A stretch of DNA of 64,000 bases. Origin: a virus. The stretch spans positions 88,108-152,107 of the IMG/VR virus record IMGVR_UViG_3300029044_000314. The stretch is one strand, 5' to 3'. Below are positions 4,247 through 53,184 of this stretch, one piece after another. The notes beneath the pieces are model-generated. The model was not told the origin of the DNA. It was given only the letters and a program-made list of their open reading frames with translations, and did no database searches. Positions within the stretch are counted from its first letter, which is position 1, and every line of letters begins with the position of its first letter. Made by a program: the position numbers and the translations under genes.

Positions 4247-5272
4247 TCAGTTCCCGTCGGCCACGCATTGCGTGAGGAACGACTTCGTTTCGGCTTTTTC
4301 CCAACTGCTCATGGACAGTTTGTACTTGTCTTTGATGTACACGCGTTTAGCCATATACGAGCATTGGTACGTCTTGTTGGACGGGAGCCAAATGCTGGGC
4401 GTTGCGTCCTTCCACTTGGTCGAGGAACCGTTCAACGCCTCGTCCTTAACAAGGTTCACGCCCTGCTGTTTGATGTTGTTCGCTTCTCCTTCGGACGCGA
4501 CGAGCACTTCCGGGTCGTTCGCATAGGTGATGCGGTCGCCCTTGCGCGAGTCCTTCCACAGTCCGCTGGCCCAAGCGTCGTTGACAGCCACCACATGGTC
4601 GATTTGGACGGCCATGCTGTCTCCGCCTGTTTTCTTCTGTTTGCCGTTGACGGTCTCGTAGGTGTCGCGCTGGAATTTGATGGCATTGCCTGTATATGGG
4701 TCTTGGAGGGTGCCGGTGAGCACCTTGCAGTTCTTGTCCATGGTCACGTCGGTCATGTCGCGTTTGAGGATGTAGTCGCGGGTGGTGCCGTATCCGCAGA
4801 GCTGGTTGCTGTTCTGCCATGTGCCGAAGTCGGTTTTGCGATTGTATCCTTTGGTGTGCGGGGTTGCGGTTTCGATGTCAGCGAGTTTGTCAAGCGCCTG
4901 TTTCGTGCTGATAGGGCTTAAAGCACCTTCAGGAACGCTTGTGGAGGCTTTTTGTGCTTGACTTGAGGAATTGTCCCCATTTTGTGTCTGCGTCGTTTCT
5001 GAGGGCGTTTCTGCGGCTTCTGGAGTATTGGTTTGCGAATTGGAGCCGGACGACTTCAAGGAAGGCTCCTTCAACCCTAATTTCACATCCGGCTTCACCT
5101 TGGAATCCTCACCCGGCATCAACTGGGATAGACTGTTGATTTCCGGCAATCCGAAAATCTTCGACATGGGAGTCCACAATCCAAGATTCACGATGAGCAC
5201 CATGGCCGTCAACACGACCAGAATGCCGCCAAGCAGGGAACCGGCGGACATTCCGCCTTTCTTCTTAGCCAT
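4247..5272 (-). CDS. membrane-anchored secreted HNH/His-Me-finger nuclease (DUF1524-like)
   Basis: N-terminal TM anchor, S/T/Q-rich linker, C-terminal domain with VQIDHVVAVNDAWASG...WLPSN...YMAKRVYIKDKY typical of the actinobacterial DUF1524 (GmrSD C-terminal-like) family. Confidence 0.55.
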   Translation of the reverse strand: MAKKKGGMSAGSLLGGILVVLTAMVLIVNLGLWTPMSKIFGLPEINSLSQLMPGEDSKVKPDVKLGLKEPSLKSSGSNSQTNTPEAAETPSETTQTQNGDNSSSQAQKASTSVPEGALSPISTKQALDKLADIETATPHTKGYNRKTDFGTWQNSNQLCGYGTTRDYILKRDMTDVTMDKNCKVLTGTLQDPYTGNAIKFQRDTYETVNGKQKKTGGDSMAVQIDHVVAVNDAWASGLWKDSRKGDRITYANDPEVLVASEGEANNIKQQGVNLVKDEALNGSSTKWKDATPSIWLPSNKTYQCSYMAKRVYIKDKYKLSMSSWEKAETKSFLTQCVADGN

Positions 5273-6989: not shown

Positions 6990-7080
6990 CCGAAAAATGG
7001 TTTTATTCTGATTTTTGATTTTTTTGCTTCTTTTTGAAAAAACCTGTTTTTTGAAAAAGAAGGGAATATAAGGGTTATTA
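6990..7080. repeat. AT-rich tract (candidate DNA-unwinding element)
   Basis: Local AT content far above the window background (ttttattctgatttttgatttttttgcttctttttgaaaaaa...), directly next to the direct repeats and the rep gene. Confidence 0.45.
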
Positions 7081-7081
7081 A

Positions 7082-7110
7082 TACCTTTTGTAACCTTTTG
7101 TAACCTTTTG
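7082..7110. repeat. 3x 10-bp direct repeat (taaccttttg)
   Basis: taccttttg taaccttttg taaccttttg; spacing is one helical turn. Confidence 0.6.
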
Positions 7111-7151
7111 CGGCGCTGAAACCCCTTGTGGCAGTAGGACTGAGGGCACTT

Positions 7152-7214
7152 TTTGGTGGGAAAAGTCCACACTTTGGTGGGAAAAGTCCACACTTTGGTG
7201 GGAAAAGTCCACAC
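7152..7214. repeat. 3x 21-bp perfect direct repeats (iterons)
   Basis: tttggtgggaaaagtccacac repeated three times in tandem, about 150 bp from the 3' end of the putative rep gene. Confidence 0.7.
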
Positions 7215-7365
7215 TAGAAAATATGCAAAAATACATGCCGTGAATAAAAAATCAAAATATTTGAAGCCTTTTTTAAATGGCATTTTCTCGAATTGGAACT
7301 TTCGACACAGAAAGTCGGAAGAAGTGGAACCATTTCTTCCATTCCTACTATCGCCCACGCTTCCG

Positions 7366-8355
7366 TCAAAAAGGATTAGCGGCATTCCTTATATCATCTG
7401 TCGATGAATCATTTTGTCCCGAATTGCATGAGACATCCGCTTTGATTACATGTCCGTCGCAGGAACCCGATTCTTCTTTCACAACAACAGCGTCCACAAT
7501 CTTGCCGTTGGAATGAATGGACGAAATGCTCGGATAGACGGTTATGCCATATTCATCAAGACTTGCCTTCAATTCAGGCCATGATTCCTTGACTTTGTTC
7601 AAGGCTGTCGTGAATCGTCTTTTGAATTCTTTGACCGGATAGTCGCCGTCCTCGAACTGAACGGTTAGGTCTTTCCACGGGACTTTCATTCCGCACGAGC
7701 GTAACTTATTTGTTCGGAAAGCCAACCACATGTAAATATCCAAAGCGAGTGCAGAATTAGATATGTTCCTGATAATGGACATTTGAGCAGGAACGGCTTC
7801 CTCTATTAGCAGAGACCACATTTGAGAGGAGAACGTAATATAGGATTCCTTATCCTCGCCGCCAAAATCAATGCATACTTTCTGCGCTACCGGGAAACTC
7901 TCATACATGCCGCTATCATCCGAAACCCAATGTTCCAATGTTATATGGGTGCAAGCAAGATTCTTGATTGACTCAAGGAGAAGACGTTTGCTTTTCCCAC
8001 CAGTGGAAGCACCCATCGCTTCACACATGGCACGATAGCTTCCTCCAAGGTTCACAGTCATGCTTTCGAAATCGACCCGAGAGTCTTTGTTTTTAATCAA
8101 AGTACGAATGTAAAGAAGAAACAATCGGGGCACAGAACCATACGACCACTTACCTTCAGTCGGAGTGATGATGATTGCGGAACGCCCGTTGGTCTTCTTG
8201 ATGTAATTCACGTCAGGTTTGCGTGCGGGAAAGAAACTGAGCTGGGACATCACGGAGGGAGCATACCGATAACTGTCACTGTCGATAGGTCTGATAGAAT
8301 TACCCATGTAACCACTTTCCTTAAGCCTCTGGTTGCCCTGCCCCGGCTGTTCCAC
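7366..8355 (-). CDS. rep: plasmid replication initiator protein (iteron-type Rep, winged-helix)
   Basis: 329 aa; adjacent iterons and AT-rich tract; sequence has the general character of RepA/Rep_3-type initiators; a partition pair lies directly upstream. Confidence 0.5.
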   Translation of the reverse strand: MEQPGQGNQRLKESGYMGNSIRPIDSDSYRYAPSVMSQLSFFPARKPDVNYIKKTNGRSAIIITPTEGKWSYGSVPRLFLLYIRTLIKNKDSRVDFESMTVNLGGSYRAMCEAMGASTGGKSKRLLLESIKNLACTHITLEHWVSDDSGMYESFPVAQKVCIDFGGEDKESYITFSSQMWSLLIEEAVPAQMSIIRNISNSALALDIYMWLAFRTNKLRSCGMKVPWKDLTVQFEDGDYPVKEFKRRFTTALNKVKESWPELKASLDEYGITVYPSISSIHSNGKIVDAVVVKEESGSCDGHVIKADVSCNSGQNDSSTDDIRNAANPF

Positions 8356-8558: not shown

Positions 8559-9014
8559 CTAATCCTTCTGCTCGTACTTGTCGATGAGCGTCTGGTCGAA
8601 GTGCCCCTGCTGGAAGCAGTAATCCATCGCGGCATTCAACAATACAGCCTGCTTCGTCCCGTATTCGATGCTTCTCATCTTCCACGCACGCCAGTTTTCG
8701 ACGGTGACGTTGCTGCCGATTCTTTTCTCTTTCGGCGGCTGATGCGTTTCGGATGGTGCCGATGTTTCAGGATGGGTTATGTCGGTGATGAGCCGTGCCC
8801 GACGGTCGGCTTCTTCCTCCGTGAGCGTTTGGGCATGCATGTCGGCGGACGTTTGGACTGACTGGTCTGACGGTTCCCGCGTTTCAGGAACGGCCTGTGT
8901 CGGTTCCTGCTCCGTGTTCGGTTCGCTAATGTTTTCCGGTGATTCCAATGGGCGCATGTCACGCTTGTCCTGCATTCCGGTTGCGAAAGCGTTGCGTTTG
9001 ATGTTCTTGACCAT
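8559..9014 (-). CDS. small partition partner / centromere-binding protein (ParB/ParG-like)
   Basis: 151 aa, acidic N-terminal region, C-terminal helix-rich domain; immediately downstream of parA in the same operon. Confidence 0.35.
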   Translation of the reverse strand: MVKNIKRNAFATGMQDKRDMRPLESPENISEPNTEQEPTQAVPETREPSDQSVQTSADMHAQTLTEEEADRRARLITDITHPETSAPSETHQPPKEKRIGSNVTVENWRAWKMRSIEYGTKQAVLLNAAMDYCFQQGHFDQTLIDKYEQKD

Positions 9015-9044: not shown

Positions 9045-9749
9045 TTATTCTTCCACCAGATTGATTTCAGACAGATAGTCGATGAGTTCCTGCACGACGC
9101 TGGAATATTCCTTGTTGTCGATTTCGGTTGTGCCGTACATGTTCTTGACGGCTTCACGTTCCGTGATGACGGTTTCGAACCGTGCGATGCCTTCCTCATC
9201 CAGTTCGCTGATGCTGTTCCGGGCGAGTTTCGTTCTCGGCTTCACGCGTGTCAACAGGACGATGCCGTTGCGTGCCGCCGCGTATGTGCGTCCCGCGTGG
9301 GTCAAATCGGATACGGATGGCTGGCATGGGATTATCACCACGTCGCCCGCGTTTATCGCCGCCTGTACCACTCCCGCGTCGGACGGTGGGGTGTCGATGA
9401 TGACCCAGCCTGAATATTTTTCGCGGATGAGTTCCGGATTGTTCAATACGGCTTCGTTGGTTTGCACGACGGGGAAGCCGAGCGTGTATGGTTTCGCGTC
9501 CGGATTGTCCTGTCTGCGTCTGCGGTTTTCCTGTTCGACGTACATTTCCCACATGGTCGCGCCGCCCGTGTTGTCGGAGTCCAAGACTGTGACTTGTTCC
9601 CCGCGTTTGTGCAATAGTTCGGCCAATGCCATTGATGTGGTTGTTTTTCCTGAACCGCCTTTGATGATTGCGACGGTGATGATGACCGTATGGTTTTTGA
9701 CTCTCATGTTCTGGTTTCCTTTTTCTGCTTCCGGTGTGGACGGAATCAT
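9045..9749 (-). CDS. parA: ParA-family partition ATPase
   Basis: Deviant Walker A KGGSGKTT; ParA/MinD-like length and layout; true start may be the internal MRVKNHTV. Confidence 0.75.
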   Translation of the reverse strand: MIPSTPEAEKGNQNMRVKNHTVIITVAIIKGGSGKTTTSMALAELLHKRGEQVTVLDSDNTGGATMWEMYVEQENRRRRQDNPDAKPYTLGFPVVQTNEAVLNNPELIREKYSGWVIIDTPPSDAGVVQAAINAGDVVIIPCQPSVSDLTHAGRTYAAARNGIVLLTRVKPRTKLARNSISELDEEGIARFETVITEREAVKNMYGTTEIDNKEYSSVVQELIDYLSEINLVEE

Positions 9750-15451: not shown

Positions 15452-18112
15452 CTAGTCATCATCATCCATGTCACCATTGCGATAACCGTTATCGAAATCG
15501 TTCACATGAACAAGGAACGTCGGTTGCAACTGTTCTTGGGTTCGAGTGCGAACAGCCGCCGCATAACGTGGAAGATTCATCACCGCGCCCGAACGCCAAC
15601 CATCCTCACCATCATTGTTCGTCAAACGTTTCGCCGTCATATCGGCAATACGCGGAATCGTCGTATTGTATGTGATGAACGTCGAATAGCCGATGAACGA
15701 ATCCAACATCGCGTCGGACAACTGGGTCGGATACTGGGTGGCGAACACGAGAAGAAGACCGAACGAACGACCCTGCTCACGCAACGCGGGCATGATACCG
15801 TCATTGCCGTTAGCCAACAGGCTCAACTCGTCGCATACGAGCATCGTCCACTTGCCAGCCTTGTCCCAATCCTTGCAATGCGCGAACACCGTATTCCAGA
15901 AACGGTACATGAGCCAGCCGCCGAGAATCTTATCCATACGTTCCGGCAACGAATAACCATTATGCGGTGCGAGCACAATGTGATAATCGCCAGCATGGTC
16001 GAGAATGTTCGTCCAAGTCACCTTGCCGCGACGTGCCGTGAACATGTGTTCGATGGGAAGGAACTGGTTCACCTTGTTCAACGAGGCGTTCGTCTTGGCG
16101 AGAATGTCACGGTCGGAACGAACCGTATGACCAGCCGCGTCCGGACGGCCATATAATTGCTCGGCGGCACGGGCGGCATACGTCATCTCCTCGAACATGT
16201 AGCCACTCTTCAATTCCATGCTCAACGCGCGGCACACATGACCCAACGCTTTCGCGGAACCGGCCTGACCGTCGGAACCGCATAATGCGACGACGGCCCA
16301 TCCGATTGGACTCAACTGCATTCGCAACTGTTCCGCACCCGGATACGATTGTTCGAGCTGATGGCAACGTTTCACAATCTCGCTTTCCCAATCCTTGTTC
16401 GCGGATTCGGGATTATGCTTACGCTCCTCCTGCACGTAACGGTCAACCGCCACGCCGATGGTCAACGCTTGGGTGATGATGTTCTGCGAGTCGTTCAGAA
16501 TATCACCGTCATCGAACGAGTAACGCATGGTCTTCGCCACGCTCGCCGCAGTCTCCATCGCATTGTTCCCGTCCTTCATGCCAAGCATGTCCAAGCACAC
16601 ACTGTTCGGGTCTGCCAAATAGACGACGCGTTGCGGACTGGTGAAACCGTGACGTTTGCGATAACGTTCCAACACGTTAACACCGGTATCATCCTTCATC
16701 CAAAAATGGATGATACGGGAGTCGCGTCCCCAGATTTTCGGACTGGTGGTCTCGCGTGCGCTGATGGCCCACTGGCTGATGCCATGGGTGAGCACGGTCT
16801 TACCGGAACCGGCCTCGCCGTTGATGGCGATACCGCCGAACAATTGCGACGGGTCGAGATAACAGTTACGTCCCGTATCATCCTTCCCAAGGAAGATGCC
16901 ATCATGCGACAATACTTCCGGAACCGGATGCAACTCCTGTTTCATCGCCACTCCCTGAGTGACCGGAGTGAACACGGAACTTACGATAATCGGGGAAAGA
17001 ATCAACGTGGTACGTTGCGCACCATAAGCCGACACGCGCTCCTTATGAGTGCGCACGCCAAGACGGGTCTGATTATCGGACTCGTTCGCGCCACGGTCGT
17101 TCGCAATCGCATAATATCTGCGTGGCGTTTGGAAAATGTCATCCCACAACGTCCAATTCTTCCAACGGATGAACGCGAAGACAAGAAGCGGAACGAAAAG
17201 AATCGGAATGAATGTCGGAAGCGGAAGCAATCCCAACAGTAGGTAAAGCATGAGCGCCACCGCTCCACCGGCAATCTGAGGTCGCGGAATGTAAACGAAC
17301 GGAATGCACGACAACAGCATGAGGAACAGGAACACGACCAACGTCACCGCAAGCAACGGAAGCGCGATTCCGAAACCCCAAGCGGAATGGAACAATGGGA
17401 AAACCCCATCCATCACGTATCCTCTTGCAAGACTGCACACACTCCAAATCACGGACAACACTTCCAACAGCATGCTGACGAACAGCAAACCGAATTTCGG
17501 ACGGCTCGCATGACTGGACATGTTGGATATGAGCGGGCAGATGATTTGACCAATCTTCTGCGCAAGCTGTCGGTTACGGGAAGCCTGACGGCAACCGAAA
17601 CTCACACGGGCGCACATCGTGTTGGTTGAAGCGAGTTCGCTTGAATCCTCGACCGCATTGTATTCGTCGCTAATCCAATTGCGAATACGAATCTGCTCGA
17701 AGTATCCCTGATTGCGAAGGGTGATGCTCACGTAACTGTCCGGCGGCATGACCTTCTCGATGCTTGTACGAACGCCGGAATAGTTCGTTCGCATTTTCTC
17801 CATGTTGCTTTTCGAGTTCAACCGGGCACGGAACGGGATGAGAGGATGTGCCGCACTGTTCACACCGTCCGGCAACACCGGCCCGTCGTCGTCTTCGACC
17901 AATTTCGCGTCGAATCCAGCCAACTGTCCGGCGTTGATGATTCCCTCGCCGTCGCCGTAAATGTATTCCTTGACCGGCTCCTCGCCCTTCTTGATGAGGA
18001 GAAGGGTGCAACCATCCAGTTCGGCTGGAATGCTTTCCATTTTCGAACGTTGCTCGTCCGCGTCAAGCTGTTGCAATGTTCTGGTTATCTGATACCAGTT
18101 CGGATTACCCAT
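15452..18112 (-). CDS. membrane-anchored P-loop translocase ATPase (FtsK/VirD4/VirB4 superfamily)
   Basis: 886 aa; 4 TM helices around residues 190-330; Walker A GEAGSGKT, Walker B MLVCDELSLL, then FATQYPTQL. Confidence 0.65.
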   Translation of the reverse strand: MGNPNWYQITRTLQQLDADEQRSKMESIPAELDGCTLLLIKKGEEPVKEYIYGDGEGIINAGQLAGFDAKLVEDDDGPVLPDGVNSAAHPLIPFRARLNSKSNMEKMRTNYSGVRTSIEKVMPPDSYVSITLRNQGYFEQIRIRNWISDEYNAVEDSSELASTNTMCARVSFGCRQASRNRQLAQKIGQIICPLISNMSSHASRPKFGLLFVSMLLEVLSVIWSVCSLARGYVMDGVFPLFHSAWGFGIALPLLAVTLVVFLFLMLLSCIPFVYIPRPQIAGGAVALMLYLLLGLLPLPTFIPILFVPLLVFAFIRWKNWTLWDDIFQTPRRYYAIANDRGANESDNQTRLGVRTHKERVSAYGAQRTTLILSPIIVSSVFTPVTQGVAMKQELHPVPEVLSHDGIFLGKDDTGRNCYLDPSQLFGGIAINGEAGSGKTVLTHGISQWAISARETTSPKIWGRDSRIIHFWMKDDTGVNVLERYRKRHGFTSPQRVVYLADPNSVCLDMLGMKDGNNAMETAASVAKTMRYSFDDGDILNDSQNIITQALTIGVAVDRYVQEERKHNPESANKDWESEIVKRCHQLEQSYPGAEQLRMQLSPIGWAVVALCGSDGQAGSAKALGHVCRALSMELKSGYMFEEMTYAARAAEQLYGRPDAAGHTVRSDRDILAKTNASLNKVNQFLPIEHMFTARRGKVTWTNILDHAGDYHIVLAPHNGYSLPERMDKILGGWLMYRFWNTVFAHCKDWDKAGKWTMLVCDELSLLANGNDGIMPALREQGRSFGLLLVFATQYPTQLSDAMLDSFIGYSTFITYNTTIPRIADMTAKRLTNNDGEDGWRSGAVMNLPRYAAAVRTRTQEQLQPTFLVHVNDFDNGYRNGDMDDDD

Positions 18113-18137: not shown

Positions 18138-18647
18138 TTAATCATTCGTGCTCTGCTGATACAACTGCGCGTATGGGAAACCTTCCGGCTTCTGGAAAGT
18201 GGAAAGCTTCTCACGTAACGACAATTGGAGAAGCCATGTAGTCATACGGACGGTTTTCTCCTTCGACTCCAAAGCCCAACCCAATGTCACGTAACCGTCG
18301 TTCACGCTCGAATCATCGTTGATGGTTTCACGCATGACGCGGATTGTTTTGTTCGCAATCCGCCGGGAAGTGTTGAACATTATCGAATCCAATTGCCAGA
18401 GTCGTATCTTCCGTAATGCGGGAACACGTTGCATGTTCGCCATCAGAAACGGAATGACCAAATGTCTACGTCCCGTCTCACATAATGTCTGAACCTGTTG
18501 CAAAGCCCGCGCACGTTCCAATCTTGCTACATCCAACGCGTCCTGCGTCTGTTGGAATGATTCCTCAGTGGAGACCATCGCAATCCTTTCCAATGAAACC
18601 GTAGAAACCGCCACGGTACGCTTCCGGCATTGTCCAACCGGAAACAT
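18138..18647 (-). CDS. hypothetical protein
   Basis: 169-aa ORF; overlaps the upstream gene, so the true start may be internal. Confidence 0.3.
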   Translation of the reverse strand: MFPVGQCRKRTVAVSTVSLERIAMVSTEESFQQTQDALDVARLERARALQQVQTLCETGRRHLVIPFLMANMQRVPALRKIRLWQLDSIMFNTSRRIANKTIRVMRETINDDSSVNDGYVTLGWALESKEKTVRMTTWLLQLSLREKLSTFQKPEGFPYAQLYQQSTND

Positions 18648-19761
18648 CCCAACCCCAATCCTTCTTTATGATGTCTCGCGTCACGTCCCAACCCCATTCG
18701 CTGACTTTGCGAACGTCACGAACCTGCGGAGTATATTGCGCCCACTCGTCGGAGAAAATGTTGCGTCGTGTTCCACTCATATCCGTATAGTCACCGAACC
18801 TGTCGGTCGGCATCCCATGCTCGAACCATTCGTCCCAGACCGCGATTCCCATTCGTTGCGACACGGTAGGATTGCCCACGACCATTTCCGTCATGCCTTG
18901 CGTGCGTTGTACCACCGCGTTGAACGATTCGTAACCTTCGTTTGCCTTCGGTATCTGCAACCATACGCAGATGAGTCCGCGACGCTTCATCGGAGAATAG
19001 GCGAGCATCTTAGCCCAGTTCTGCATCTTCTTATCCAATTCGCTGTTGGACGTTTGGATTTCGATACCCGCCAACACATTGTTCCGGCACAACGTCACCA
19101 CGTCGGTCGCGCAAGCCTTGCCGACCTTCGACTCGGCAACAGCCTGTGGGTCAACGCTACGGAATTTTCCCCAACCATCACCGGATGAGAATTTCACACG
19201 TGAATCGCGTGCCAACATCAATCCCGCGTGCGCCGCATAAGTGTTATGCCGAACATGGAAACGATTCCCCGCGTAATAGGAAACCGCCATCGTCTCACGC
19301 ATCCACTTTTCCATCCCGTACAATTTCATCGCACGGTTGATAAGACGTGGACTGTTCGACGGTGAAAGCCAAACATGATTCACGGTCTGACCGTACAATC
19401 GTTCCGCCTGACTGAAACCGACGTTGATGATTCCCAAACGGTTCATCGCACCATACAGGTTCGGTTCGTCACGTTCGAAAGCGGGAGCGCCTTTGATGGA
19501 AAGTCCCGCACGTAGTTGGTCAACCGTGCATGTCTTCCAAGTGAACAATGCGCCGAGGATACTCGAAACGAGTTCGCTGTTCGCTTTCACCATTGTCTCC
19601 GCGAACAGTTTGTTCGCAACGAACCACGGGTGGGTCTGCGCGAACAATCCGGGATGCTCCATCTCGAACATGTCGTTGCCTTTATACCAGTCGGCAATGC
19701 TTCCGGTCTTCCAAAGATTCTCGTCGTTCGGGTCGAAAAGAAAACGGTCATCGAATGTCAC
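18565..19761 (-). CDS. hypothetical protein
   Basis: 398-aa ORF with ordinary composition, within the transfer operon. Confidence 0.45.
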   Translation of the reverse strand: MTFDDRFLFDPNDENLWKTGSIADWYKGNDMFEMEHPGLFAQTHPWFVANKLFAETMVKANSELVSSILGALFTWKTCTVDQLRAGLSIKGAPAFERDEPNLYGAMNRLGIINVGFSQAERLYGQTVNHVWLSPSNSPRLINRAMKLYGMEKWMRETMAVSYYAGNRFHVRHNTYAAHAGLMLARDSRVKFSSGDGWGKFRSVDPQAVAESKVGKACATDVVTLCRNNVLAGIEIQTSNSELDKKMQNWAKMLAYSPMKRRGLICVWLQIPKANEGYESFNAVVQRTQGMTEMVVGNPTVSQRMGIAVWDEWFEHGMPTDRFGDYTDMSGTRRNIFSDEWAQYTPQVRDVRKVSEWGWDVTRDIIKKDWGWDVSGWTMPEAYRGGFYGFIGKDCDGLH

Positions 19762-20972
19762 TTACGCCCACGACCTTTCTTTCCTTCACTGTTCTTAGCG
19801 TTCGGATTGAATCTTTCCGGATTGAAACCACGGTCGGGCAAAGCCCAGTTAAGAATGTTCTCCCTAGCAAAAGCAAGACCGGGGTCATCCCATCTGACAT
19901 CACCGTTGGCGATATGGTTGCTTGCCTCGACCGTCTGATATTCGGTTCCGAGAAACGTTCCGTATCTCGTATAGTCGAGTCGTCTGTAACCTTGCAGTCC
20001 GACCGGAACGGTGTCCTTGATTCCGATGAGTTCCTTCGGAAGATGATGCTCAGCCAAGGCCGTCAGCAGATTCAACGCGTCTATCTGCGTCTGCCTTCCA
20101 GCCTTGACGATAACCAGACAAGGGTCTCCCGATTGAATGTATGGAAGCAGTAAACCGTTGGCGATATTCTCCCTATCATCCAAATCGTCCGCGCTGATTC
20201 GGTCAAGGTCGAGCACGACGAAATCCCACAGTCGGCGTGCCGCTTGGATGTACTGACGGTATATCTGCCAGTCCACTCCGACGCCTGCTGGAGGTGCGAA
20301 ACAGATGTCGTATGGAACCCCAAGGTCACGTCCTCGATTGGCTCCGACCTGCACCTGCATGCCCGGTCGCCAGTCGGCTATCGTATGCAATGGCTTGTCC
20401 TGTCTCGGGTCGAAAAAACTACGTTGACTGGACTGTCTGATGTTGCCGTCGATGAGCAGAACACGCAATCCGGCTTGCGACGCACGGTCTGCCAACTGTC
20501 GGCTGGACGTGGTCTTCCCCACTCCTCCGGTGTTGGATGTGATGGGTAGGAGAACCGCAGTCTCCTTCACTTTGTTTTGGAGGATATCGACTACGAGACG
20601 CTTGTCCGCAAGCTGGATTCCCCAATAAGTCCGTGCGAAATCAGCCACGCTCATGCGTAACATCTGTTCGCTCATGCCCATGGCTCCGACCGGTATCTGA
20701 CCGGTGTTGCACCAGTAGACCATGTATCCGGCGTTGGCTATCGGAAGCCAGTTTCCAGCCCTGTCAGTGAAGATGATTCCCTTGAACCCGGAGGGCACCG
20801 GATGTCTTACCAGATAGTCGGCCTGTGCTTGAATATTGTCTGCGGCGGGCACCTGCCAACGCATGTTTCCAGCTCTCGTAAGGGCCTTTTTGATGGTTGT
20901 GAGAAGCCCTCCGGAGCCGATTATCAGGGAAATCGTTCGTTTTTCCAATAAGACCGCCTCCTGATGGGTCAT
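19758..20972 (-). CDS. CpaE/TadZ-like ParA/MinD-family ATPase with N-terminal receiver-like domain
   Basis: 404 aa; deviant Walker A SNTGGVGKTT at about residue 150, preceded by a ~140-aa pseudo-receiver-like region; first gene of the leftward operon. Confidence 0.55.
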   Translation of the reverse strand: MTHQEAVLLEKRTISLIIGSGGLLTTIKKALTRAGNMRWQVPAADNIQAQADYLVRHPVPSGFKGIIFTDRAGNWLPIANAGYMVYWCNTGQIPVGAMGMSEQMLRMSVADFARTYWGIQLADKRLVVDILQNKVKETAVLLPITSNTGGVGKTTSSRQLADRASQAGLRVLLIDGNIRQSSQRSFFDPRQDKPLHTIADWRPGMQVQVGANRGRDLGVPYDICFAPPAGVGVDWQIYRQYIQAARRLWDFVVLDLDRISADDLDDRENIANGLLLPYIQSGDPCLVIVKAGRQTQIDALNLLTALAEHHLPKELIGIKDTVPVGLQGYRRLDYTRYGTFLGTEYQTVEASNHIANGDVRWDDPGLAFARENILNWALPDRGFNPERFNPNAKNSEGKKGRGRK

Positions 20973-21039
20973 GTTCCGTTGTTTTCATCGGAACGTTTAC
21001 GGTTTTGTCCGAGTTCTGGCATTTATAGTTTTTTGATAT

Positions 21040-21760
21040 TTAGTTTTTTGTTGGTTTTGCTGTTGCTTTTTTCATTGCATTGGCTGTTCCTGTATTGATG
21101 TTACCTTGTTTTGATTGTCGTTGACCTTGTTAGTGAGACTATTGACCTTTTTGTTGTTTTTGTTGTTGTAGTGGCTGTTGGTTGTTGTTTGTGCTGGTGC
21201 TGGTGCTGGTGCTTGACCTGTTGCCTTGTGGTGCTGTTGCTTGGCTTTTCTTGTTTCTTGGGGTGTTTGGTGCTGTTGTTCTTCTGTTTTGTATGCCATA
21301 TGGGTTGATGTGCTGTTCCTTTGTGGATGGTTGCGTTGCTTCTGTTGTTTTCATACGTTGTATTCCCGATTTAGGGGTAGGTGTTTCTTCTTTTATTGTC
21401 CTGTTCTTCTGTTGCTTCTATTTGATTAAGATTGCTGCTCTTATATTCTCCTTTTCTTCCTTTTGGTTTTTCTTTTCTTTCTGATTTTCTTGGTTATTCT
21501 TTTTTGATGTGATGGTGTTTGGTTTCTTTTTCTGATTTTTTGGTGGGTAGTGCTTCCTTTCTTTTAGTCTTTTTGATTTTTGGTTTTTCTCTTTTTTTTT
21601 GAGTCTGCTATTCATGTTGACCTACCGGCGTGGACTGGATGGTTTTCATGTTTTTTTTCTGATAATGGTCGGGTGTTGTTCCTTTTTTCATATTTGTTGG
21701 GGACTCTTTTTGGTTCCGCTTTTCTGTTGGAACTACCGGCGCGGGCGGCGCGGGGAATTG
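21040..21760. other. strand-skewed low-complexity region (T/G-rich, A-poor on the plus strand) in a divergent intergenic region
   Basis: About 700 bp with very few A on the plus strand; (tggtgc)x4 microsatellite at 21191-21214; minus-strand ORFs here encode K/N/Q-rich peptides. Confidence 0.6.
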
Positions 21761-21875
21761 TTTTTCCCGTTTTCCCCGTTTAGGGATGCTGTCGGGCGTT
21801 ACACTCGTGAATTGAAAATACAGAACACCTCGTTCCGACTGTTAACAGCCTGTACGACCGGAGTGTTCGCTGGAT

Positions 21876-22598
21876 ATGACGAAAGAAGGTATGATGCCAG
21901 ACTTCACCAATTGGGGATTCAACAACAACCAGCAGTCGGAGCAGGACAATGGTTACGGTTCCGACAATTATGCTGAACCGGAGCAGTCTTCTGTCGAGGA
22001 GTCGCAGACGGAATCCGATTCTCTTAATCAGGAGAGTTCGGAGCCTGTCTCTGACGTGTCCGCACCGGCTGATGGTGAGGATGTGAACGTGGACGCTGAG
22101 TCCACTGAAACCGAAGACAAGCCGAGGGGGAAGGGTAAGGGCCGTTCTAATCGCAAACCGCGTGAGAAGACCATGCCGCACATCGAGGAACAGTTCGGCA
22201 AGAAGCTGATTCCTCTTGTCAAATCGTTGGATGACGAGCGTGTGGTTTCTCTCGCCAAGGCGTTGACTGATACGAAGAAGAGCACTCCGGAAGCAGTGCT
22301 GGACGCATTGACTGAGCCGAAGAACCAACGTCGAATCTCTGAGTTCGCGTCCGCGTTGGAAGGGTTGGCTACAGCCGAGCCGGGCATGATTGCCGCAGAG
22401 GTGACGTTGGTGTTCGCGCAGGGCAAGGATATGACCAACCTGCTGTTCTCCGTGCTGAACGCGGTCGCGCCGGAGAAGAATTTCGGACGTCCGGTTGACG
22501 ACCAGTCTCCTGCCGGAATGCGTAAGAACCTGAGCAAGATTGTCGATAATTGGGGTGACGGTGTTGACCTTTCCGTTATCGATGAGCTGAAAATCTGA
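21876..22598 (+). CDS. acidic hypothetical protein
   Basis: 240 aa; D/E/S-rich N-terminal half, basic patch KPRGKGKGRSNRKPREK. Confidence 0.5.
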   Translation: MTKEGMMPDFTNWGFNNNQQSEQDNGYGSDNYAEPEQSSVEESQTESDSLNQESSEPVSDVSAPADGEDVNVDAESTETEDKPRGKGKGRSNRKPREKTMPHIEEQFGKKLIPLVKSLDDERVVSLAKALTDTKKSTPEAVLDALTEPKNQRRISEFASALEGLATAEPGMIAAEVTLVFAQGKDMTNLLFSVLNAVAPEKNFGRPVDDQSPAGMRKNLSKIVDNWGDGVDLSVIDELKI

Positions 22599-29456: not shown

Positions 29457-29855
29457 TTGGAAAGGACGAACAAAAGCATGGTCGAAAAACCGAAAAAACC
29501 GAACACATCCCCGGCGAAGCTTCTGACCGCAGACGAGGCTTTGGCCTTGGGAAGACGACCGGAAGTCGTCAACGTCTTGAAAAACAAGCACGGATGGTGG
29601 GTAATCTTCACCACCCAATTCCAAGACGAAGTGACCCTCCGATATCTGCAAGGGGAACGTCCCTCGGAGATATTCCGCAGTCACAATCTCGGACCGGAAG
29701 TCCTCGGATACAAGCGCATAGAACGTTGCGTATACCGGTGGGTCAACCATCCCAGCAAATCCCGTGTCAAACGTTGGCAAACGGAACACCGCCTGTATGA
29801 GACGTTGAACAAGAATCAGACCAACACCGGCAAGAAGGAGAACAACGACAAGTGA
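29457..29855 (+). CDS. basic hypothetical protein
   Basis: 132-aa ORF coupled to dnaB (stop/start overlap). Confidence 0.4.
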   Translation: MERTNKSMVEKPKKPNTSPAKLLTADEALALGRRPEVVNVLKNKHGWWVIFTTQFQDEVTLRYLQGERPSEIFRSHNLGPEVLGYKRIERCVYRWVNHPSKSRVKRWQTEHRLYETLNKNQTNTGKKENNDK

Positions 29856-31192
29856 GCGTCCCCACACCAATCCACAAGGACATGGCCGAACAAGTGTTGT
29901 TGGGGGCCATGCTTCAAGACGCGGAAACGTTGGACAAGGTCATCAGCCAACTTTCCGAAGAGGACTTCTACCAGCCGACCAACCAGACCATCTTCCATAA
30001 TATAAAGGAACTGGCCGCAGACAATAACCGTGTGGACGCGCAAATGCTGTCCTCGCACATGATGGACAACGGACAGTTGGAACAGGTCGGCGGCATCGAC
30101 TACATCGCCCAGCTTGTCGGCTCCGCGCCCACGTCGAACAACAGTGACTATTTCATCAAGCAGATTCGTGACGCGGCCATCCTCCGCCACATCAACGTGG
30201 TCGGACAGCAGTTGCAACAGATGAGCAACGTGTCCGACGCGTCAGCCGAAGATGTGCTCAGCAAATCGTTGGAGGCCGCGTTCTCGTTGGAGGATTCAAG
30301 CCGTTCCGAAGACGACGAGTTGAAGACCGCATACCGCCTGTCCGACGAAATGCTCCAACAGTTGGATGAAATGTCACAGAATCCGAACGAGTTCGGAACA
30401 CCCACCGGCTTCCGTGACATCGACGCGTTGACGCACGGATTGCAAGCCGGACAAATGGTCATAGTCGCGGGCCGTCCGGGCATGGGCAAGAGTACTCTCG
30501 GCATGGATTTCGCGCGTAACGCCGCACTGCACAAGGGTCTGCCGACTGTGATTTTCAGTCTGGAAATGGGCGGTCACGAACTCATGCAACGCATGTTCGC
30601 AGCCGAAACAGGCATCCGTCTCGCATCGTTCCAACATCCCGAGAATCTGAACTCGAATGATTGGAACAAACTCAACGCGCTCTGCCATCAGGTCGAGAAG
30701 GCACCATTGTGGGTTGATGATTCCGCCATCATCAACATGAGCACCATCCGTGCGAAATGCCGTGCTCTCAGCCGCAAGGTCAACGGGTTGAAGCTTATCG
30801 TCATCGACTACCTGCAACTCATGTCCTCCGGTAAAACCGTCGAGAACCGTCAGCAGGAAGTGTCGAACTTCTCCCGCCAATGCAAAATGCTCGCCAAGGA
30901 ACTGCAATGCCCCGTGGTCGTGCTCTCCCAGTTGAACCGTAATGCGGAACAGCGTGCCGACAAGAAGCCGGAACTGTCCGACCTGAGAGAGTCCGGTTCC
31001 ATCGAACAGGACGCCGACATGGTGTTTCTCGTGCATCGTCCCGAATATTACGACCGTGAGGAACGTCCGGGCGAAGCCGACGTGATTCTCGCCAAGCACC
31101 GTAACGGGCCTACCGAAACGTTCAATCTCGCGTTCATGGGCGAATGCTCCAAATTCGCGGACATGGCCGCAGGTTTCGAAAACGAGTTCTGA
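29852..31192 (+). CDS. dnaB: replicative DNA helicase DnaB
   Basis: 446 aa; N-terminal domain LLGAMLQD, Walker A AGRPGMGKST, LIVIDYLQLM, SQLNRNAEQRADKKPELSDLRESGSIEQDADMV. Confidence 0.9.
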   Translation: MSVPTPIHKDMAEQVLLGAMLQDAETLDKVISQLSEEDFYQPTNQTIFHNIKELAADNNRVDAQMLSSHMMDNGQLEQVGGIDYIAQLVGSAPTSNNSDYFIKQIRDAAILRHINVVGQQLQQMSNVSDASAEDVLSKSLEAAFSLEDSSRSEDDELKTAYRLSDEMLQQLDEMSQNPNEFGTPTGFRDIDALTHGLQAGQMVIVAGRPGMGKSTLGMDFARNAALHKGLPTVIFSLEMGGHELMQRMFAAETGIRLASFQHPENLNSNDWNKLNALCHQVEKAPLWVDDSAIINMSTIRAKCRALSRKVNGLKLIVIDYLQLMSSGKTVENRQQEVSNFSRQCKMLAKELQCPVVVLSQLNRNAEQRADKKPELSDLRESGSIEQDADMVFLVHRPEYYDREERPGEADVILAKHRNGPTETFNLAFMGECSKFADMAAGFENEF

Positions 31193-31243: not shown

Positions 31244-32641
31244 ATGCCAACAACATTGATAATCGTCGCGGCAGTGGCGATACTCATCATCCTGCTCGCA
31301 ACCGCAAGCTACAAGGTCTGCCCCGCCGACCGGGTAATGGTCATCACCGGGCCGGGTGGATGACGCTTCGTCTCCGGCGGAAGCGCGTTCATCATACCCT
31401 TCATCATGCGCGTGGACTGGCTCTCCCTCGGAGCGGTGCAGTCGCTCCTGAGAACCGACACGCCGATTCCGACGAAGGACGCAATCCTCATCGACGTGAA
31501 CGCCGTCGCGAACTTCCAGATAGCGTCCGAGACCATGACCGTGGACGAGAACGGTAAACAGGTGAAGGCGTTGGAGAACGCCGCCAAGAACTATCTGAAC
31601 CAGTCCAAGGAGCGAATGGAGAAGGACGTGACGCAGGTGCTCTTGGGCAAGCTGCGCGAGGTCATCGGCAAGACCGAGTTGAAGGAGCTCATGGAGAACA
31701 GGGACACGTTCGCCGCGACCGTGGCCGAATCCGCCCGCGTGGATATGGAACGGCTTGGCCTTCAATTGACCACGTTCAACATTCAAGACTTCACCGACCG
31801 TCAGAACGTCATCGCCAACATGGGCGCTGAAATGGCCGCCGAAATCAGCCGGAATGCGAAGCTCGCGTCCATCAACGCGGAACAGGATGTGGCCGTCCGT
31901 CAGAACCAGCTCGACCTGAAACGAGCCGAACTCCAATCCATCTCCGACAAGGCGCAGGCCGAGGCCGACGCGGTGAAGGGCATCACCGCCGCCGAACAGT
32001 CCAAAACTCTCAAAGTCAAGGAGCAAGAGGCTGAAATCGCCGCCGCCGAAAAGAAGGCAGTCCTCGAACAGAAGAACGCCGAAATCGAAGAGCAAAAACT
32101 GAACGCGACCATCCGCAAGAAGGCCGACGCCGACCGTTACGCCGCCGAACAGCAGGCCGACGCGCAAATGTACACAACCCAAAAACACGCCGACGCGGAA
32201 CTGTACCTACGCCAGCAGGAGGCTCAGGCCATCCAATCCACAGCCGACGCGGACGCACACGCGACCGAAGTCAAAGGCAAGGCTGAAGGCTCCGCCGCAC
32301 AGGCCAAGGGCGTGGGCGAGGCGGAGGCAATCCGCGCCCAAGGCCGAGCCTACAATGCGATGAACAACACGTACATCCTCGCCCAACAGTACATTCAGAT
32401 TCTCCCCGACATGGTTCGAGCCGCCGCCGAACCGCTCACCAAGGTTGACCACATCACCATGTACGGCGACGGAAACAGCACGAAGCTCGTGGGCGACACG
32501 GTGAACAGTGTGAGCCAGTTGAGTGAGGGATTGTCGCAATCCTTGGGCATCGATTTGAAAGCCTTGCTGAACAGTATGGTGGCCGGTCATGCCGCCGGTT
32601 CCGCATTGAGTGAGAAAGGTTCCGAACAGTCCGGAAACTAG
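31244..32641 (+). pseudogene. flotillin/SPFH (band-7) protein gene interrupted by an in-frame TGA at 31361-31363
   Basis: N-terminal piece MPTTLIIVAAVAILIILLATASYKVCPADRVMVITGPGG, then TGA, then RFVSGGSAFIIPFIMRVDWLSLGAV... in the same frame. This matches the flotillin/YuaG N-terminal TM plus SPFH core; the C-terminal EA-rich coiled-coil and conserved tail are present. Confidence 0.65.
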
Positions 32642-34544: not shown

Positions 34545-34650
34545 GAAAACTTTTCTGACCGTTTGACGGTTGGAAAAGCATGAAATGTTCCGCTTGGCGT
34601 GTCGGGAACCCAAATATCGACACGCCACCTTTTAGATTCTTTATAACCGC

Positions 34651-35712
34651 ATGGGAGGGGTTTTGGGAAAACATACGGCGAAACCGAAAGGCTTGGGAAA
34701 TCGAGCCATAGCGGGACTTCTCTGCCTAATCCTATCCGCCCTGTCCGGAACCATCCCATTCATTCTCATGATTTCGAACAGCAGCCAATCCAACCGGTTG
34801 ACCGACTCCCACGCGCAAGCCGTGGAAAACACTGACGTGAAACGAATCGCCCAAGAGTATGCGGACGCGCAAGCCTACAATCAACGCCTATACGAGGAAG
34901 GCCAGCCCATTCTTGGTGAGGCGGAAGACCCTTGGACAGGCGTCAACAAGTCCGAAACGGACAACACGTATCGGAAGCAACTATCCACCCCCAAGGATGG
35001 GGTCATGGCCACCATCAAATATCCACGCTTGGGCATCAACCTGCCCATCCGGCATGGCACGTCGCAAAACGTGTTGGCCGCTGGAGCCGGACACTTATAT
35101 GGTTCCAGTCTCCCCGTCGGCGGCAAGAACACGCATACTGTCATATCCGCGCACACGGGTTTGGCAGACCAGCTCATGTTCGACAAGCTACGAGGCTTCG
35201 GCAGTGAAGCCAAAAAAAGTGACGTCTTCTATCTGATAACCGCCGGACATACGCTCGCCTACAAGGTCACAAGCATTGATGTGGTAGACCCATCCGATTT
35301 CACCAAACTGAAAATCGTCGCCGGAAAAGACCTCGCCACACTCCTAACCTGCACGCCATACGGCATCAACAACAAGCGACTCCTAGTGACCGGCACGCGC
35401 ACCAGCATGCCGCACCCCGCACCCAGACCCGAAAACGCGCCGAAAGACCACACGAACCAATGGCTCATACTGTACGTCGGCGGCTTCTGGCTTGCGGTAA
35501 TCATCATCACCATTCTCATCATCCGTAGAAAAACCACGCAAAGAAGGAACACTAATGGGTATTCTCAAAAAGCATGTGGCACATCCGGTAGCATTATTGG
35601 CCGCAATCGCCACACTGTCATCCGGCCTGATATGCATGACCAATCCGGTAGCCTCTCCGAAAGCGCATGCGGACGAGTTGAAACCCGCATATGCTACTGC
35701 GAAAATCGTTAA
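34651..35712 (+). CDS. class C (pilus-associated) sortase
   Basis: N-terminal TM, catalytic TLLTCTPYG (TLXTC), C-terminal TM WLILYVGGFWLAVIIITILIIRRK; the ORF tail overlaps the adhesin start by 158 nt. Confidence 0.85.
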   Translation: MGGVLGKHTAKPKGLGNRAIAGLLCLILSALSGTIPFILMISNSSQSNRLTDSHAQAVENTDVKRIAQEYADAQAYNQRLYEEGQPILGEAEDPWTGVNKSETDNTYRKQLSTPKDGVMATIKYPRLGINLPIRHGTSQNVLAAGAGHLYGSSLPVGGKNTHTVISAHTGLADQLMFDKLRGFGSEAKKSDVFYLITAGHTLAYKVTSIDVVDPSDFTKLKIVAGKDLATLLTCTPYGINNKRLLVTGTRTSMPHPAPRPENAPKDHTNQWLILYVGGFWLAVIIITILIIRRKTTQRRNTNGYSQKACGTSGSIIGRNRHTVIRPDMHDQSGSLSESACGRVETRICYCENR

Positions 35713-40942: not shown

Positions 40943-40953
40943 AAGGAACAAGA

Positions 40954-41886: not shown

Positions 41887-41898
41887 TCCCCAATCCTT

Positions 41899-41925
41899 GG
41901 GTGGTGGGGTTCATCCCCACCACCC
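41899..41925 (+). promoter_or_regulatory. GC-rich hairpin downstream of the VR (candidate DGR target-recognition stem-loop)
   Basis: ggtggtgggg-ttcat-ccccaccacc, 10-bp stem, about 27 nt after the end of VR homology; no counterpart after the TR. Confidence 0.5.
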
Positions 41926-41958
41926 CTCCAAACTCAAATCTCACACAAAAGGAGTCCT

Positions 41959-42474: not shown

Positions 42475-42516
42475 AATATAATTGAACAAAATCGGCCATA
42501 TCCAAACTATGGTGAC

Positions 42517-42670
42517 ACCGTTTCCGGTTCCACTCCTCTTGGTGCTAACAACAACAATTGGTGGGAGCGTTCGCCCGACCCGAACAACAACAACAATTTC
42601 CTCCAAGTGAACTCGAACGGCGACCCCAGCTACAACAACAATGCCAACAATCGCTACTCCGTTGTCCCCG
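42517..42670 (+). repeat. DGR template repeat (TR)
   Basis: Non-coding copy of the VR in which 15 codon positions are AAC/AAT and one is GAC; lies about 200 bp upstream of the RT gene. Confidence 0.85.
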
Positions 42671-53177: not shown

Positions 53178-53184
53178 TATGAGA

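Follow-up and report, generated by a model that had tools for sequence, protein, structure and literature searches.

What keeps a single nucleotide almost entirely out of one strand over several hundred bases at the head of a plasmid operon? The question is raised by a low-complexity region between divergent genes at positions 21040-21760 of a 64,000-nt stretch of IMG/VR virus record IMGVR_UViG_3300029044_000314 (positions 88,108 to 152,107 of that record; the whole stretch is referred to here as the window). A sequence-only reading of the window had singled out this region and had offered several explanations for it: an origin of transfer (oriT) or nic region, a long structured leader, a curved-DNA platform for nucleoid proteins, or lysine-rich microproteins. 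Our analysis indicates that the core of the region, a tract nearly free of T on the operon strand, is very probably a noncoding cis-element in the control region of a transfer operon of pMP7017-family megaplasmids, whose composition is kept by selection or by a mutational regime of very local extent. The preserved properties are the near-absence of T from the sense strand, the richness in A, and an order in which an A/G-rich part precedes an A/C-rich part; sequence and length drift freely. This pattern points to an undescribed control element defined by composition only, rather than to tiny proteins or junk. Because strand specificity and orientation are conserved, the function would be that of one strand, acting as RNA or as single-stranded DNA.

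A tract nearly free of T

On the plus strand, the region 21040-21760 consists of A 0.085, C 0.146, G 0.251, and T 0.519, against A 0.240, C 0.267, G 0.261, and T 0.232 across the 64-kb window, and its GC content is 39.7% compared with 52.8% window-wide. These counts bear out both compositional claims that had been made from the sequence alone, namely, a plus strand rich in T and G and almost free of A (51.9% T, 8.5% A) and a GC content well under the window average. When G+T was computed over 700-nt segments, the maximum of 0.78 fell at position 21031, against a background mean of 0.49, standard deviation of 0.054, and maximum of 0.63. A maximal-segment scan of the whole window returned 21146-21800 (655 nt, 7.6% A) as the top single-base-depleted segment, with a score of 205; the runner-up, which lies within coding sequence at 31944-32350, scored 155. 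Read on the minus strand, the sense strand of the leftward operon, the missing base is T, and its deficit in the tract has a binomial probability of 8e-22.

The region does lie between divergent open reading frames (ORFs), as had been stated: the first gene of the operon at 19758-20972 on the minus strand and a gene at 21876-22598 on the plus strand. The boundaries of 21040 and 21760 need correction: the strictly T-free, low-complexity core spans approximately 21150-21712, and the outer portions, 21040-21149 and 21713-21760, are conserved blocks of flanking motifs. The parts of the core are as follows.

21150..21712, minus strand (that of the operon; 5' to 3' from 21712 to 21150): T-free tract, delimited by composition, relatives, and noncoding tests
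21400..21595, minus strand: purine-rich (A/G) 5' half of the tract; plus-strand T 61%, C 14.8%, G 16.3%
21150..21399, minus strand: A/C-rich (C>G) 3' half of the tract; plus-strand T 50.6%, G 30.7%, C 13.1%
21191..21213, unstranded: microsatellite (GTGCTG)3.8, reading GCACCA on the sense strand; polymorphic in copy number

The tract is broken at 21596-21633 by the second copy of a motif from the distal flank. Up to that point, from 21150 to 21595, the plus strand is 6.5% A and 55.4% T, and the 3' half has 31% C and 13% G on the sense strand. The (tggtgc)x4 microsatellite of the sequence-only reading was recovered by Tandem Repeats Finder (TRF) as 3.8 copies of GTGCTG at 21191-21213; by whole units, the window has 4 hexamers versus 3 in six near-identical metagenome copies (L001-L006). 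The tandem arrays of the region (TTG, GTGCTG, and TTTTTGA) are each just 18-43 nt long within approximately 600 nt, and TRF found no head-to-tail copies of a single short unit across the region, the remainder being cryptically simple. Because the arrays are few and short, we regard the region as cryptically simple sequence and not as a tandem repeat.

T-poor tracts also occur in coding sequence on this plasmid, since the second strongest T-depleted segment (31944-32350, plus strand, 407 nt, 6.9% T) lies inside an SPFH/Band-7 gene (ORF 31406-32641), where it presumably encodes a low-complexity hydrophilic region.

Conservation of composition across the plasmid family

The plasmid family was recognized by protein-level search alone, as PLSDB nucleotide searches with the region and with 12 kb around it returned no match. 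The first operon gene encodes a 404-aa ParA-like protein that is 57% identical to the products of 'CobQ' genes of Bifidobacterium breve pMP7017 and five B. longum megaplasmids. Named database homologues of this protein come from Bifidobacterium sp. SO1 and B. callitrichidarum, and in the assembly collection the exact protein turns up in 201 blocks, with contigs reaching >200 kb. Given these homologues and the large contigs, we assign the window by its sequence to the conjugative pMP7017 Bifidobacterium megaplasmid family, of which it is an uncatalogued, lower-GC member. A metagenome pattern scan returned only 8 loci; its patterns fell on the P-loop.

Ten diverged loci were compared, oriented with the operon on the plus strand and encoding ParA-like proteins 44-78% identical to that of the window. 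Across each 11- to 13-kb locus, the segment most strongly depleted of T occupies the same place in 8 of the 10, approximately -830 to -130 from the operon start and always on the sense strand. These segments are 164-807 nt long and contain 2.7-7.6% T, 43-52% A, 23-30% C, and 16-28% G. The deficit is found in the window, L007, L008, L009, L010 (pMP7017), L011, L012, and L013 (ParA-like identity, 52-78%), with binomial P values per locus of 1e-11 to 1e-26. The most extreme tract is that of L013 (524 nt, 2.7% T), and that of pMP7017 lies at 52865-53221. In L014 (B. callitrichidarum) and L015, the remaining two lineages, the depletion is mild, with T at approximately 12-16%. A known simple-repeat class with no positional conservation had been named as the finding that would speak against a function; instead, the position is kept in 8 of 10 lineages. 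No tract of this type is present in Arthrobacter-type plasmids, where a distant ParA-like homologue is preceded by an upstream region of just 210 nt.

Primary sequence is not conserved, and the tracts could not be aligned between lineages. Quintile compositions nevertheless reveal a common internal order among the relatives: a GC box, then the A/G-rich part, then the A/C-rich part, with C>G in the final two quintiles of most relatives. AT content is 47-60% in the tracts versus 36-47% in the host plasmids, and several of the relatives' tracts are 52-53% GC.

Two loci, L018 and L021, can still be aligned to the window, with ParA-like genes at 87% nucleotide identity overall and 70% at third codon positions. 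The three parts of the intergenic region compare with these loci as follows.

Central tract: 59-60% identity, 137-230 gap columns
Distal 43-nt block: 95-98% identity, 0 gap columns
Proximal ~190-nt block: 94-96% identity, 4 gap columns

With 94-98% identity against 70% at third codon positions, the flanks are under strong purifying selection. The tract, judged by its alignment, appears to evolve effectively neutrally in sequence, and its T content in this comparison stays at 6-8% despite the divergence. An unconstrained tract would relax to the local 15-21% T in lineages whose synonymous sites are saturated, which argues that the composition is maintained, either by selection or by local slippage, which would restore T-free sequence more quickly than point mutation removes it.

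Among the six 98%-identical metagenome copies (L001-L006), the differences are 1- to 2-nt homopolymer changes, 3 versus 4 hexamers, a 9-nt GC-box unit, and a few substitutions. Such variation is of the slipped-strand kind seen at phase-variable loci. Lengths of A runs also differ among the near-identical copies when 20950-21900 of the window is compared with L001-L006 (8 or 9, 6 or 8, and others).

Three origins for the tract were considered and rejected. Decayed low-complexity coding sequence does not account for a composition that persists despite complete sequence turnover. A template or variable repeat of a diversity-generating retroelement, for which the reverse transcriptase gene at 42865-44094 might be invoked, is 21 kb from its enzyme, has no second copy, and would have to explain A-richness that is conserved rather than mutated. 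The third, mutational skew associated with replication or transcription, bears on which strand is which. The origin of pMP7017 has been mapped to ~118-120 kb, next to repB, with the skew terminus at 37 kb (PMC8313286). Because the operon sits between the two, the A/C-rich strand would be both the leading and the sense strand. The tract skew would then run opposite to known mutational skews, in which leading and sense strands tend toward G/T, and its magnitude appears far too large for such a cause.

Coding capacity, curvature, and RNA structure

Minus-strand ORFs rich in K/N/Q/E exist, as reported from the sequence alone (21418-21615, 21139-21354, and 21072-21299), and small proteins could be read from the region in two ways, as lysine-rich products of the minus strand or as hydrophobic, F/L/V/C-rich products of the plus strand. 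ORFs of 65-100 aa are present on both strands, in pMP7017 the corresponding place carries a 91-aa antisense coding sequence (CDS) in the PGAP annotation, and ORFs of 55-73 aa are predicted by metagenome gene callers. Yet no period-3 signal was detected in 9 tracts (z -0.9 to 1.1), as against z values of 2.7-17.3 for neighboring CDS of the same length. The 65-aa ORF carries a 1-nt indel in 6 of 6 near-identical copies, being frameshifted in 5 and re-framed in L001 by a second 1-nt indel; indels of 1-2 nt break frames among 98%-identical copies in general, and gene callers predict differing small ORFs on near-identical contigs. The three sense frames are largely open, and no conserved frame, start, or peptide was found among the relatives. 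Such openness follows automatically from the composition, because every stop codon needs both T and A and is thereby barred from a sense strand without T and from an antisense strand without A; start codons likewise need T. These results refute the lysine-rich microproteins, and small proteins of either kind are a scarcely credible explanation of the tract.

Residual T shows no preference for ATG (25 observed versus 24.5 expected); it is overrepresented before C (ATC, 69 versus 33.5 expected; GTC, 35 versus 13) and depleted before A (NTA, 82 observed versus 129 expected).

The depletion of TpA bears on the proposal of a curved-DNA or nucleoid-protein platform, in which phased A-tracts would bend the DNA or recruit an Lsr2/H-NS-like silencer over the transfer promoter. 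The tract is the most AT-rich noncoding DNA near the operon, and the window shows a weak 10.5-bp periodicity of A-tracts (z 3.3). Seven relatives lack this periodicity (z -1.0 to 1.8); intrinsic curvature was therefore rejected as inconsistent across relatives, leaving the curved-DNA platform of the sequence-only reading unsupported. Lsr2/H-NS-like proteins favor TpA steps, which are depleted here, several relatives' tracts exceed 50% GC, and binding of this type needs no strand asymmetry. A platform of either kind is highly improbable.

Folding predictions speak to the long structured leader that had also been proposed. The sense RNA has a predicted folding energy of -97 kcal/mol over 861 nt (z -0.16 relative to shuffles), with hairpins at both ends only, and the antisense RNA one of -184 kcal/mol (z -0.59). 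The claim of structure thus fails, and a long, unstructured leader stays as the favored reading. Rfam returned no match at gathering or E<=1 thresholds, and a tRNA search was likewise negative. Within the tract, no terminator-like site was found on the operon strand and a consensus scan found no promoter-like site on either strand. A plasmid replication origin or DNA-unwinding element was rejected as well: the pMP7017 tract, at 52.87-53.22 kb, is far from the origin at ~118-120 kb, and the RepA_C gene of the window is 13 kb away.

Conserved flanking blocks and palindromes

The inverted repeats that were to be looked for beside an oriT are present in the conserved flanks and are of the GTTCC-N-GGAAC type. 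From the distal side, which abuts the divergent gene, to the proximal side, next to the operon, the motifs are as follows (IR, inverted repeat).

21798..21840, unstranded: distal conserved 43-nt block; 95-98% identity between the window and L018/L021
21821-21837, unstranded: IR1, CGGAAC-N5-GTTCTG, a hairpin within the distal block
21736..21755, unstranded: GC box, (CGCGCC)n-like; C-rich on the sense strand and rich in G runs on the plus strand; 9-nt unit variable in copy number
21713..21733, unstranded: IR2, GTTCC-N11-GGAAC, at the 5' edge of the tract; loop GAAAAGC, followed by AAAAAG
21596..21633, unstranded: second, degenerate copy of the distal motif (CGCCGGTAGGTCA...GACTC), found by pattern search; 111 bp from the first, 74% identity
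21100-21107, 21120-21128, and 21141-21149, minus strand: three direct repeats AAGGT(C/A)AA(C/T) at the 3' edge of the tract, spaced by 20-21 bp
21084..21107, minus strand: conserved motif AAGGTAACATCAATACAGGAACAG; 16/22 identical to CGTAATATCAAGAAATGAACAG of pMP7017 and B. longum plasmids
21021-21027: TATAAAT, on the proximal side
20973..20994, unstranded: IR3, GTTCCG-N10-CGGAAC, an inverted repeat directly upstream of the operon Shine-Dalgarno sequence and start

In the distal block, inspection by eye revealed -35- and -10-like hexamers on the minus strand (TTAACA-N19-TATTTT) around the inverted repeat, and the block may be a promoter/operator shared by the divergent gene and the operon. A short, variable A-rich stretch with a CGGGGAA...TTCCCCG hairpin also lies on the distal side. 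L007-L014 have a GC box in the corresponding position. Read along the T/G-rich strand, the sequence of the box is GGCGCGGGCGGCGCGGGG and that of the microsatellite (GGTGCT)n; each contains at least 4 G runs, and they could form putative two-tetrad G-quadruplexes.

IR2 has its loop GAAAAGC and 3' flank AAAAAG kept across the family, even in L014. Its stems have counterparts in place in L008 (GGGTCC/GGACCC), L009 (CTGTCG/CGACAG), and L014 (GGTTCC/GGAACC). Covariation is limited to one clearly compensatory change (L008), with mismatches in L018 and L021 (one each) and in L007, and is so thin that an RNA hairpin and a protein operator are indistinguishable at IR2. The second copy of the distal motif (21596-21633) is kept in L018/L021. 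On the proximal side, ACCTTGTT is found twice at a 21-bp spacing among the direct repeats of 21100-21149, which are invariant in L018/L021; pMP7017 has a pair spaced by 21 bp in place. The GGTAWCAT of AAGGTAACATCAATACAGGAACAG recurs in L007, L009, and L013, making the motif a candidate -10-like element (TAnnnT), protein-binding site, or nic site.

Related palindromes extend beyond the region. TTCCG-N9-14-CGGAA is present at -22 to -168 in 10 of 14 loci examined (including the window, L007, L010, L011, L012, L014, L018, L021, and L022). The window contains 5 copies of GTTCC-N9-13-GGAAC (8873-8891, 20973-20994, 21713-21733, 34587-34609, and 44805-44826) versus 0.61 expected, an 8-fold enrichment, and one of them is 42 nt upstream of a sortase/pilus gene. 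A looser form, TTCC-N10-14-GGAA, is enriched 3- to 5-fold, with 22 sites versus 4.2 expected in the window and 34 versus 12.5 in pMP7017. Three sites of the palindromic motif fall inside the transfer operon, at 17368, 18622, and 20021. A regulator acting across the plasmid may use the motif as its operator; alternatively, the sites may make up a set of RNA hairpins.

These half-sites give some substance to an alternative in which the tract is a signal-free spacer. It would keep 0.3-0.8 kb between operator blocks, so that a repressor bound at IR1/IR2 and IR3 could loop the DNA or the divergent promoters could be uncoupled, and its composition would be kept up by slippage turnover of A-rich motifs together with selection against promoter-like TANNNT hexamers, which are impossible on either strand when one strand has no T. 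The near-neutral rate of sequence change, large indels, and variable lengths of homopolymers and microsatellites are as expected for a spacer, as is the depletion of TA dinucleotides among the residual T. A GTTCC/GGAAC half-site lies on both sides of the tract, and the 8-fold enrichment and the site upstream of the sortase gene are operator-like. The tract contains no promoter-like site that we could find on either strand, and it is dispensable in two relatives. Left unexplained by a spacer are the conserved order of A/G before A/C and the retention of the tract in 8 of 10 lineages against bacterial deletion bias. Its orientation is also equal in all lineages, although a frozen accident could account for this, and looping requires no special sequence. 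We consider a spacer unlikely.

The probable transfer operon and the case for an oriT

The genes of the operon, together with the divergent gene, are the following.

19758..20972, minus strand: ParA/MinD-type P-loop ATPase, operon gene 1, 404 aa as called (Pfam CbiA/AAA_31)
18565..19761, minus strand: winged-helix plus PD-(D/E)XK nuclease-fold protein, 398 aa, candidate MOBC-like relaxase (structure model)
15452..18112, minus strand: HerA/FtsK-superfamily ATPase, 886 aa, resembling type IV coupling proteins (TrwB, Cag-beta; structure model)
21876..22598, plus strand: divergent 240-aa protein with an acidic disordered N terminus followed by a basic patch; syntenic in all relatives and matching no family

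In NCBIfam, the ParA-like protein has weak matches to ParA, CpaE, and tyrosine kinases. Its real start is probably TTG 20948 and not ATG 20972: an AGGAGG Shine-Dalgarno sequence lies at 20957-20962, 8 nt before TTG 20948, and the homologues start at the equivalent position with GTG or ATG behind a Shine-Dalgarno sequence. With this start, IR3 would lie entirely within the untranslated region. Pfam, NCBIfam, and PDB sequence searches returned no match for the 398-, 886-, 1343-, and 240-aa proteins. Although invisible to sequence libraries, the 398- and 886-aa proteins model confidently. The AlphaFold2 (AF2) model of the latter (predicted local distance difference test [pLDDT] score of 79) matches HerA, Cag-beta, and TrwB (Foldseek E ~1e-8; target-normalized TM-score [TMt] up to 0.62, for TrwB), and NCBI names the Bifidobacterium sp. 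SO1 homologue a 'type IV secretory system conjugative DNA transfer family protein'. Their modeled folds make the two proteins candidates for the relaxase and coupling protein that have been missing from pMP7017-family plasmids, and the operon is best read as a DNA-processing/transfer (Dtr) module, an assignment made at fold level that does not extend to family membership. Synteny is the same in every relative: a divergent protein of 200-245 aa, which is a candidate regulator or DNA mimic, the long intergenic region, the ParA-like protein, and proteins of ~400, ~150, and ~870 aa, followed by 2 small genes and a protein of ~1300 aa.

An oriT in this position would make sense of several of these observations. 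The whole intergenic region would be the oriT of a MOBC-like (PD-(D/E)XK) relaxase, its conserved blocks holding nic and the sites for the relaxase and accessory proteins, and the tract would be the hairpin-free single strand that is melted and transferred first, easing the loading of a helicase or coupling protein and carrying neither promoters nor restriction palindromes. An inverted repeat followed by a single-strand-like motif is a layout typical of nic regions, and IR2 is followed, family-wide, by the conserved single-strand-like motif GGAMCC-N-AAAAAG. The proximal block has three direct repeats spaced by 20-21 bp with an inverted repeat ~105-175 bp away. Three downstream genes model as a ParA-like ATPase (compare VirC1), a winged-helix plus PD-(D/E)XK protein, and a TrwB/VirD4-like ATPase, and the MOBC relaxase TraX, which shares the architecture of the second, binds direct repeats 70-120 bp from nic (PMC12857230). 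The tract is enriched in AT relative to the plasmid (47-60% versus 36-47%). Finally, MOB-suite finds no relaxase and no oriT on these experimentally conjugative plasmids and calls them non-mobilizable, so an unrecognized oriT must exist somewhere.

Several results pull the other way. None of 10 nic or nick motifs (MOBP, MOBQ, MOBF, MOBV, and rolling-circle Rep) occurs on either strand of 20900-21900. With several relatives' tracts at 52-53% GC, the conserved property is exclusion of T and not ease of melting, and a duplex without TpA steps should not be especially unstable. L014 and L015 have a weak tract or none. FtsK/SpoIIIE-type translocases are encoded elsewhere on pMP7017, so that a nicked single strand might play no part in transfer. 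The oriT/nic proposal of the sequence-only reading is thus plausible for the intergenic region as a whole, with its MOBC-like and TrwB/VirD4-like neighbors and flanking repeats, and is weakened for the tract itself, which has no conserved sequence. As an account of the tract, an oriT is the main rival to a leader, and we hold it to be somewhat unlikely.

In pMP7017 (L027/L028), the regions 97895-103210 and 84844-89545 encode two FtsK/SpoIIIE-type proteins beside a RepA gene and an 885-aa ATP-binding protein next to a 'phage tail tip lysozyme'. With these proteins encoded away from the operon, the transfer machinery of pMP7017 appears dispersed, and it may include a double-strand translocase.

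A proposed U-free leader

The reading that we favor, tentatively and at less than even confidence, is that the tract is the U-free, structure-free, and untranslatable leader of the transfer operon. A repressible promoter in the distal block, which abuts the divergent gene, would drive transcription of the tract together with the operon, and the transcript would begin with a 5' leader of 0.5-0.9 kb. This leader would offer no base pairing, no intrinsic terminators, almost no start codons, and few AU-rich endonuclease sites, because it has nearly no U and, in its 3' half, little G. Naked, untranslated RNA would be held between 5' hairpins (the GC box and IR2) and a hairpin or operator adjacent to the ribosome-binding site (IR3), where it could serve as a substrate for factor-dependent control, by Rho-type premature termination or by the loading of an RNA-binding regulator. 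The transfer genes would be off by default and switched on conditionally.

In favor of a leader, the strand-specific composition is conserved where the sequence is free, and the top T-depleted segment stands at the head of the operon. The distal block is far more conserved than synonymous sites and has its inverted repeat between the -35- and -10-like hexamers, which together suggest a promoter to the eye. A single transcription unit would be compatible with the palindromes, which recur at IR2, at IR3, and within the operon (17368, 18622, and 20021). The direction of the skew, opposite to that of known mutational skews, the predicted lack of structure in the sense RNA, the absence of coding capacity, and the avoidance of TA by the residual T also favor a leader, for which pLS20 offers a Gram-positive precedent (PMC13401043).

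Several points weigh against a leader. The published pMP7017 transcriptome makes no mention of the region, and its supplement has no per-gene table of transcription units or start sites for it. The 3' edge of the tract has motifs resembling a -10 element (GGTAACAT at approximately -130 and TATAAAT at approximately -75); if these belong to a real promoter, the tract would lie upstream of transcription. The candidate distal promoter, with its 19-nt spacer, was missed by the consensus scan, which found none at the distal end. The palindromes cannot identify the transcribed strand because they read identically on both strands. The 5' half of the tract has G>C and not C>G, and the Rut (Rho utilization) sites mapped in an actinobacterium (M. 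tuberculosis) are biased toward U>G (PMC13650167), which is impossible for a U-free RNA. The tract is also weak or absent in L014 and L015, which retain the operon and the flanking repeats.

Other features of the window

Elsewhere, the window encodes a sortase, a 1795-aa surface protein, and a reverse transcriptase, as well as the following.

7366-8355: RepA_C
9045-9749: partition ParA
29852-31192: DnaB

A 1-kb trough in GC content (41.8%) at 7001-8000 overlaps the RepA_C gene (7366-8355) and may mark the replication origin of the plasmid. A protein with a GmrSD_C (type IV restriction) domain is encoded at 4247-5272 on the minus strand. The reverse transcriptase gene (RVT_1, 42865-44094) lies just downstream of that for a DUF6273 protein (40825-41886), and the gene for the 1795-aa RCC1/SdrD-repeat surface protein (35555-40942) is also upstream of it; 40825-44094 may be a diversity-generating retroelement acting on an adhesin.

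Implications

Megaplasmids of the pMP7017 type are reported from ~10% of human gut microbiome samples, mostly from infants and mothers (PMC10832533), and are the only known conjugative plasmids of bifidobacteria. The present analysis provides leads to their transfer system in the form of a probable DNA-processing module (ParA-like ATPase, winged-helix plus PD-(D/E)XK protein, and coupling-protein-like ATPase) and two strongly conserved noncoding blocks that are candidates for an oriT, promoter, or operator, with the composition-only element between them. In practical terms, the intergenic region could supply a candidate minimal fragment for mobilizable vectors in the genetically recalcitrant bifidobacteria.

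Long leaders and oriT regions ahead of Gram-positive transfer operons are already known kinds of element. The pMP7017 papers describe no tract of 0.2-0.8 kb that is conserved only in excluding T from one strand, and literature searches on related terms found nothing. It is conceivable, if doubtful, that the tract represents a new class of bacterial cis-element, defined only by the exclusion of one base from one strand, that stands, as a single strand free of structure and signals, at the head of the DNA-transfer module of a conjugative plasmid of Actinobacteria and depends on orientation and composition and not on sequence, whether as the DNA first unwound and threaded for a non-canonical PD-(D/E)XK relaxase system or as a gating leader RNA. 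If the element proves orientation dependent, it would show that selection can maintain several hundred bases purely by banning one nucleotide from one strand, a signal of composition that escapes motif- and covariance-based searches.

Comparison with known systems

The closest parallel in logic is the conjugation operon of pLS20 from Bacillus subtilis, which has a 456-nt leader (PMC13401043) regulated by zipper-type attenuation and processive antitermination (PMC13401043, PMC8191782). In pLS20, as would also hold for the window under the leader reading, a leader of several hundred nucleotides lies between a repressible promoter, next to a divergent regulator gene, and the first transfer gene, and keeps the transfer genes off by default. 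The pLS20 leader, however, uses defined RNA structures and terminators, followed by antiterminator genes, whereas the RNA of the tract would be free of structure, U, and terminators and unconstrained in sequence, with a ParA-like ATPase as the first gene product. The analogy would therefore be one of logic, not of sequence or structure.

Rho utilization (rut) sites are C>G, unstructured, and untranslated RNA (PMC6407284, PMC13650167). The 3' half of the tract resembles them in having 31% C and 13% G on the sense strand and in being predicted to be unstructured and untranslated. It differs in that the tract is 5-10 times longer, the 5' half is purine-rich with G>=C, and the U>G bias of the actinobacterial sites mapped so far is ruled out by its composition.

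The MOBC oriT is represented by oriT2 and TraX of pAD1. TraX has the winged-helix plus PD-(D/E)XK architecture of MOBC relaxases and binds direct repeats 70-120 bp from nic with no covalent intermediate (PMC12857230). The window shares with this system a 398-aa neighbor with a winged-helix plus PD-(D/E)XK model, direct and inverted repeats just upstream of the transfer genes, and a coupling-protein-like ATPase in the operon. The 398-aa protein differs in having no sequence-level relationship to MOBC proteins detectable in Pfam, NCBIfam, or PDB searches. To our knowledge, a T-free tract of 0.2-0.8 kb is part of no described oriT.

Homopurine-homopyrimidine, poly(dA:dT), and cryptically simple sequences are characterized by strand asymmetry, slippage-prone homopolymers and short repeats, and rapid changes in length, all of which the tract shares. 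Unlike these sequences, the tract conserves the exclusion of T and not purine content, its 3' half being A/C-rich, and it has neither mirror symmetry nor a single repeat unit. Its position and orientation, moreover, are fixed relative to one operon across deep divergence.

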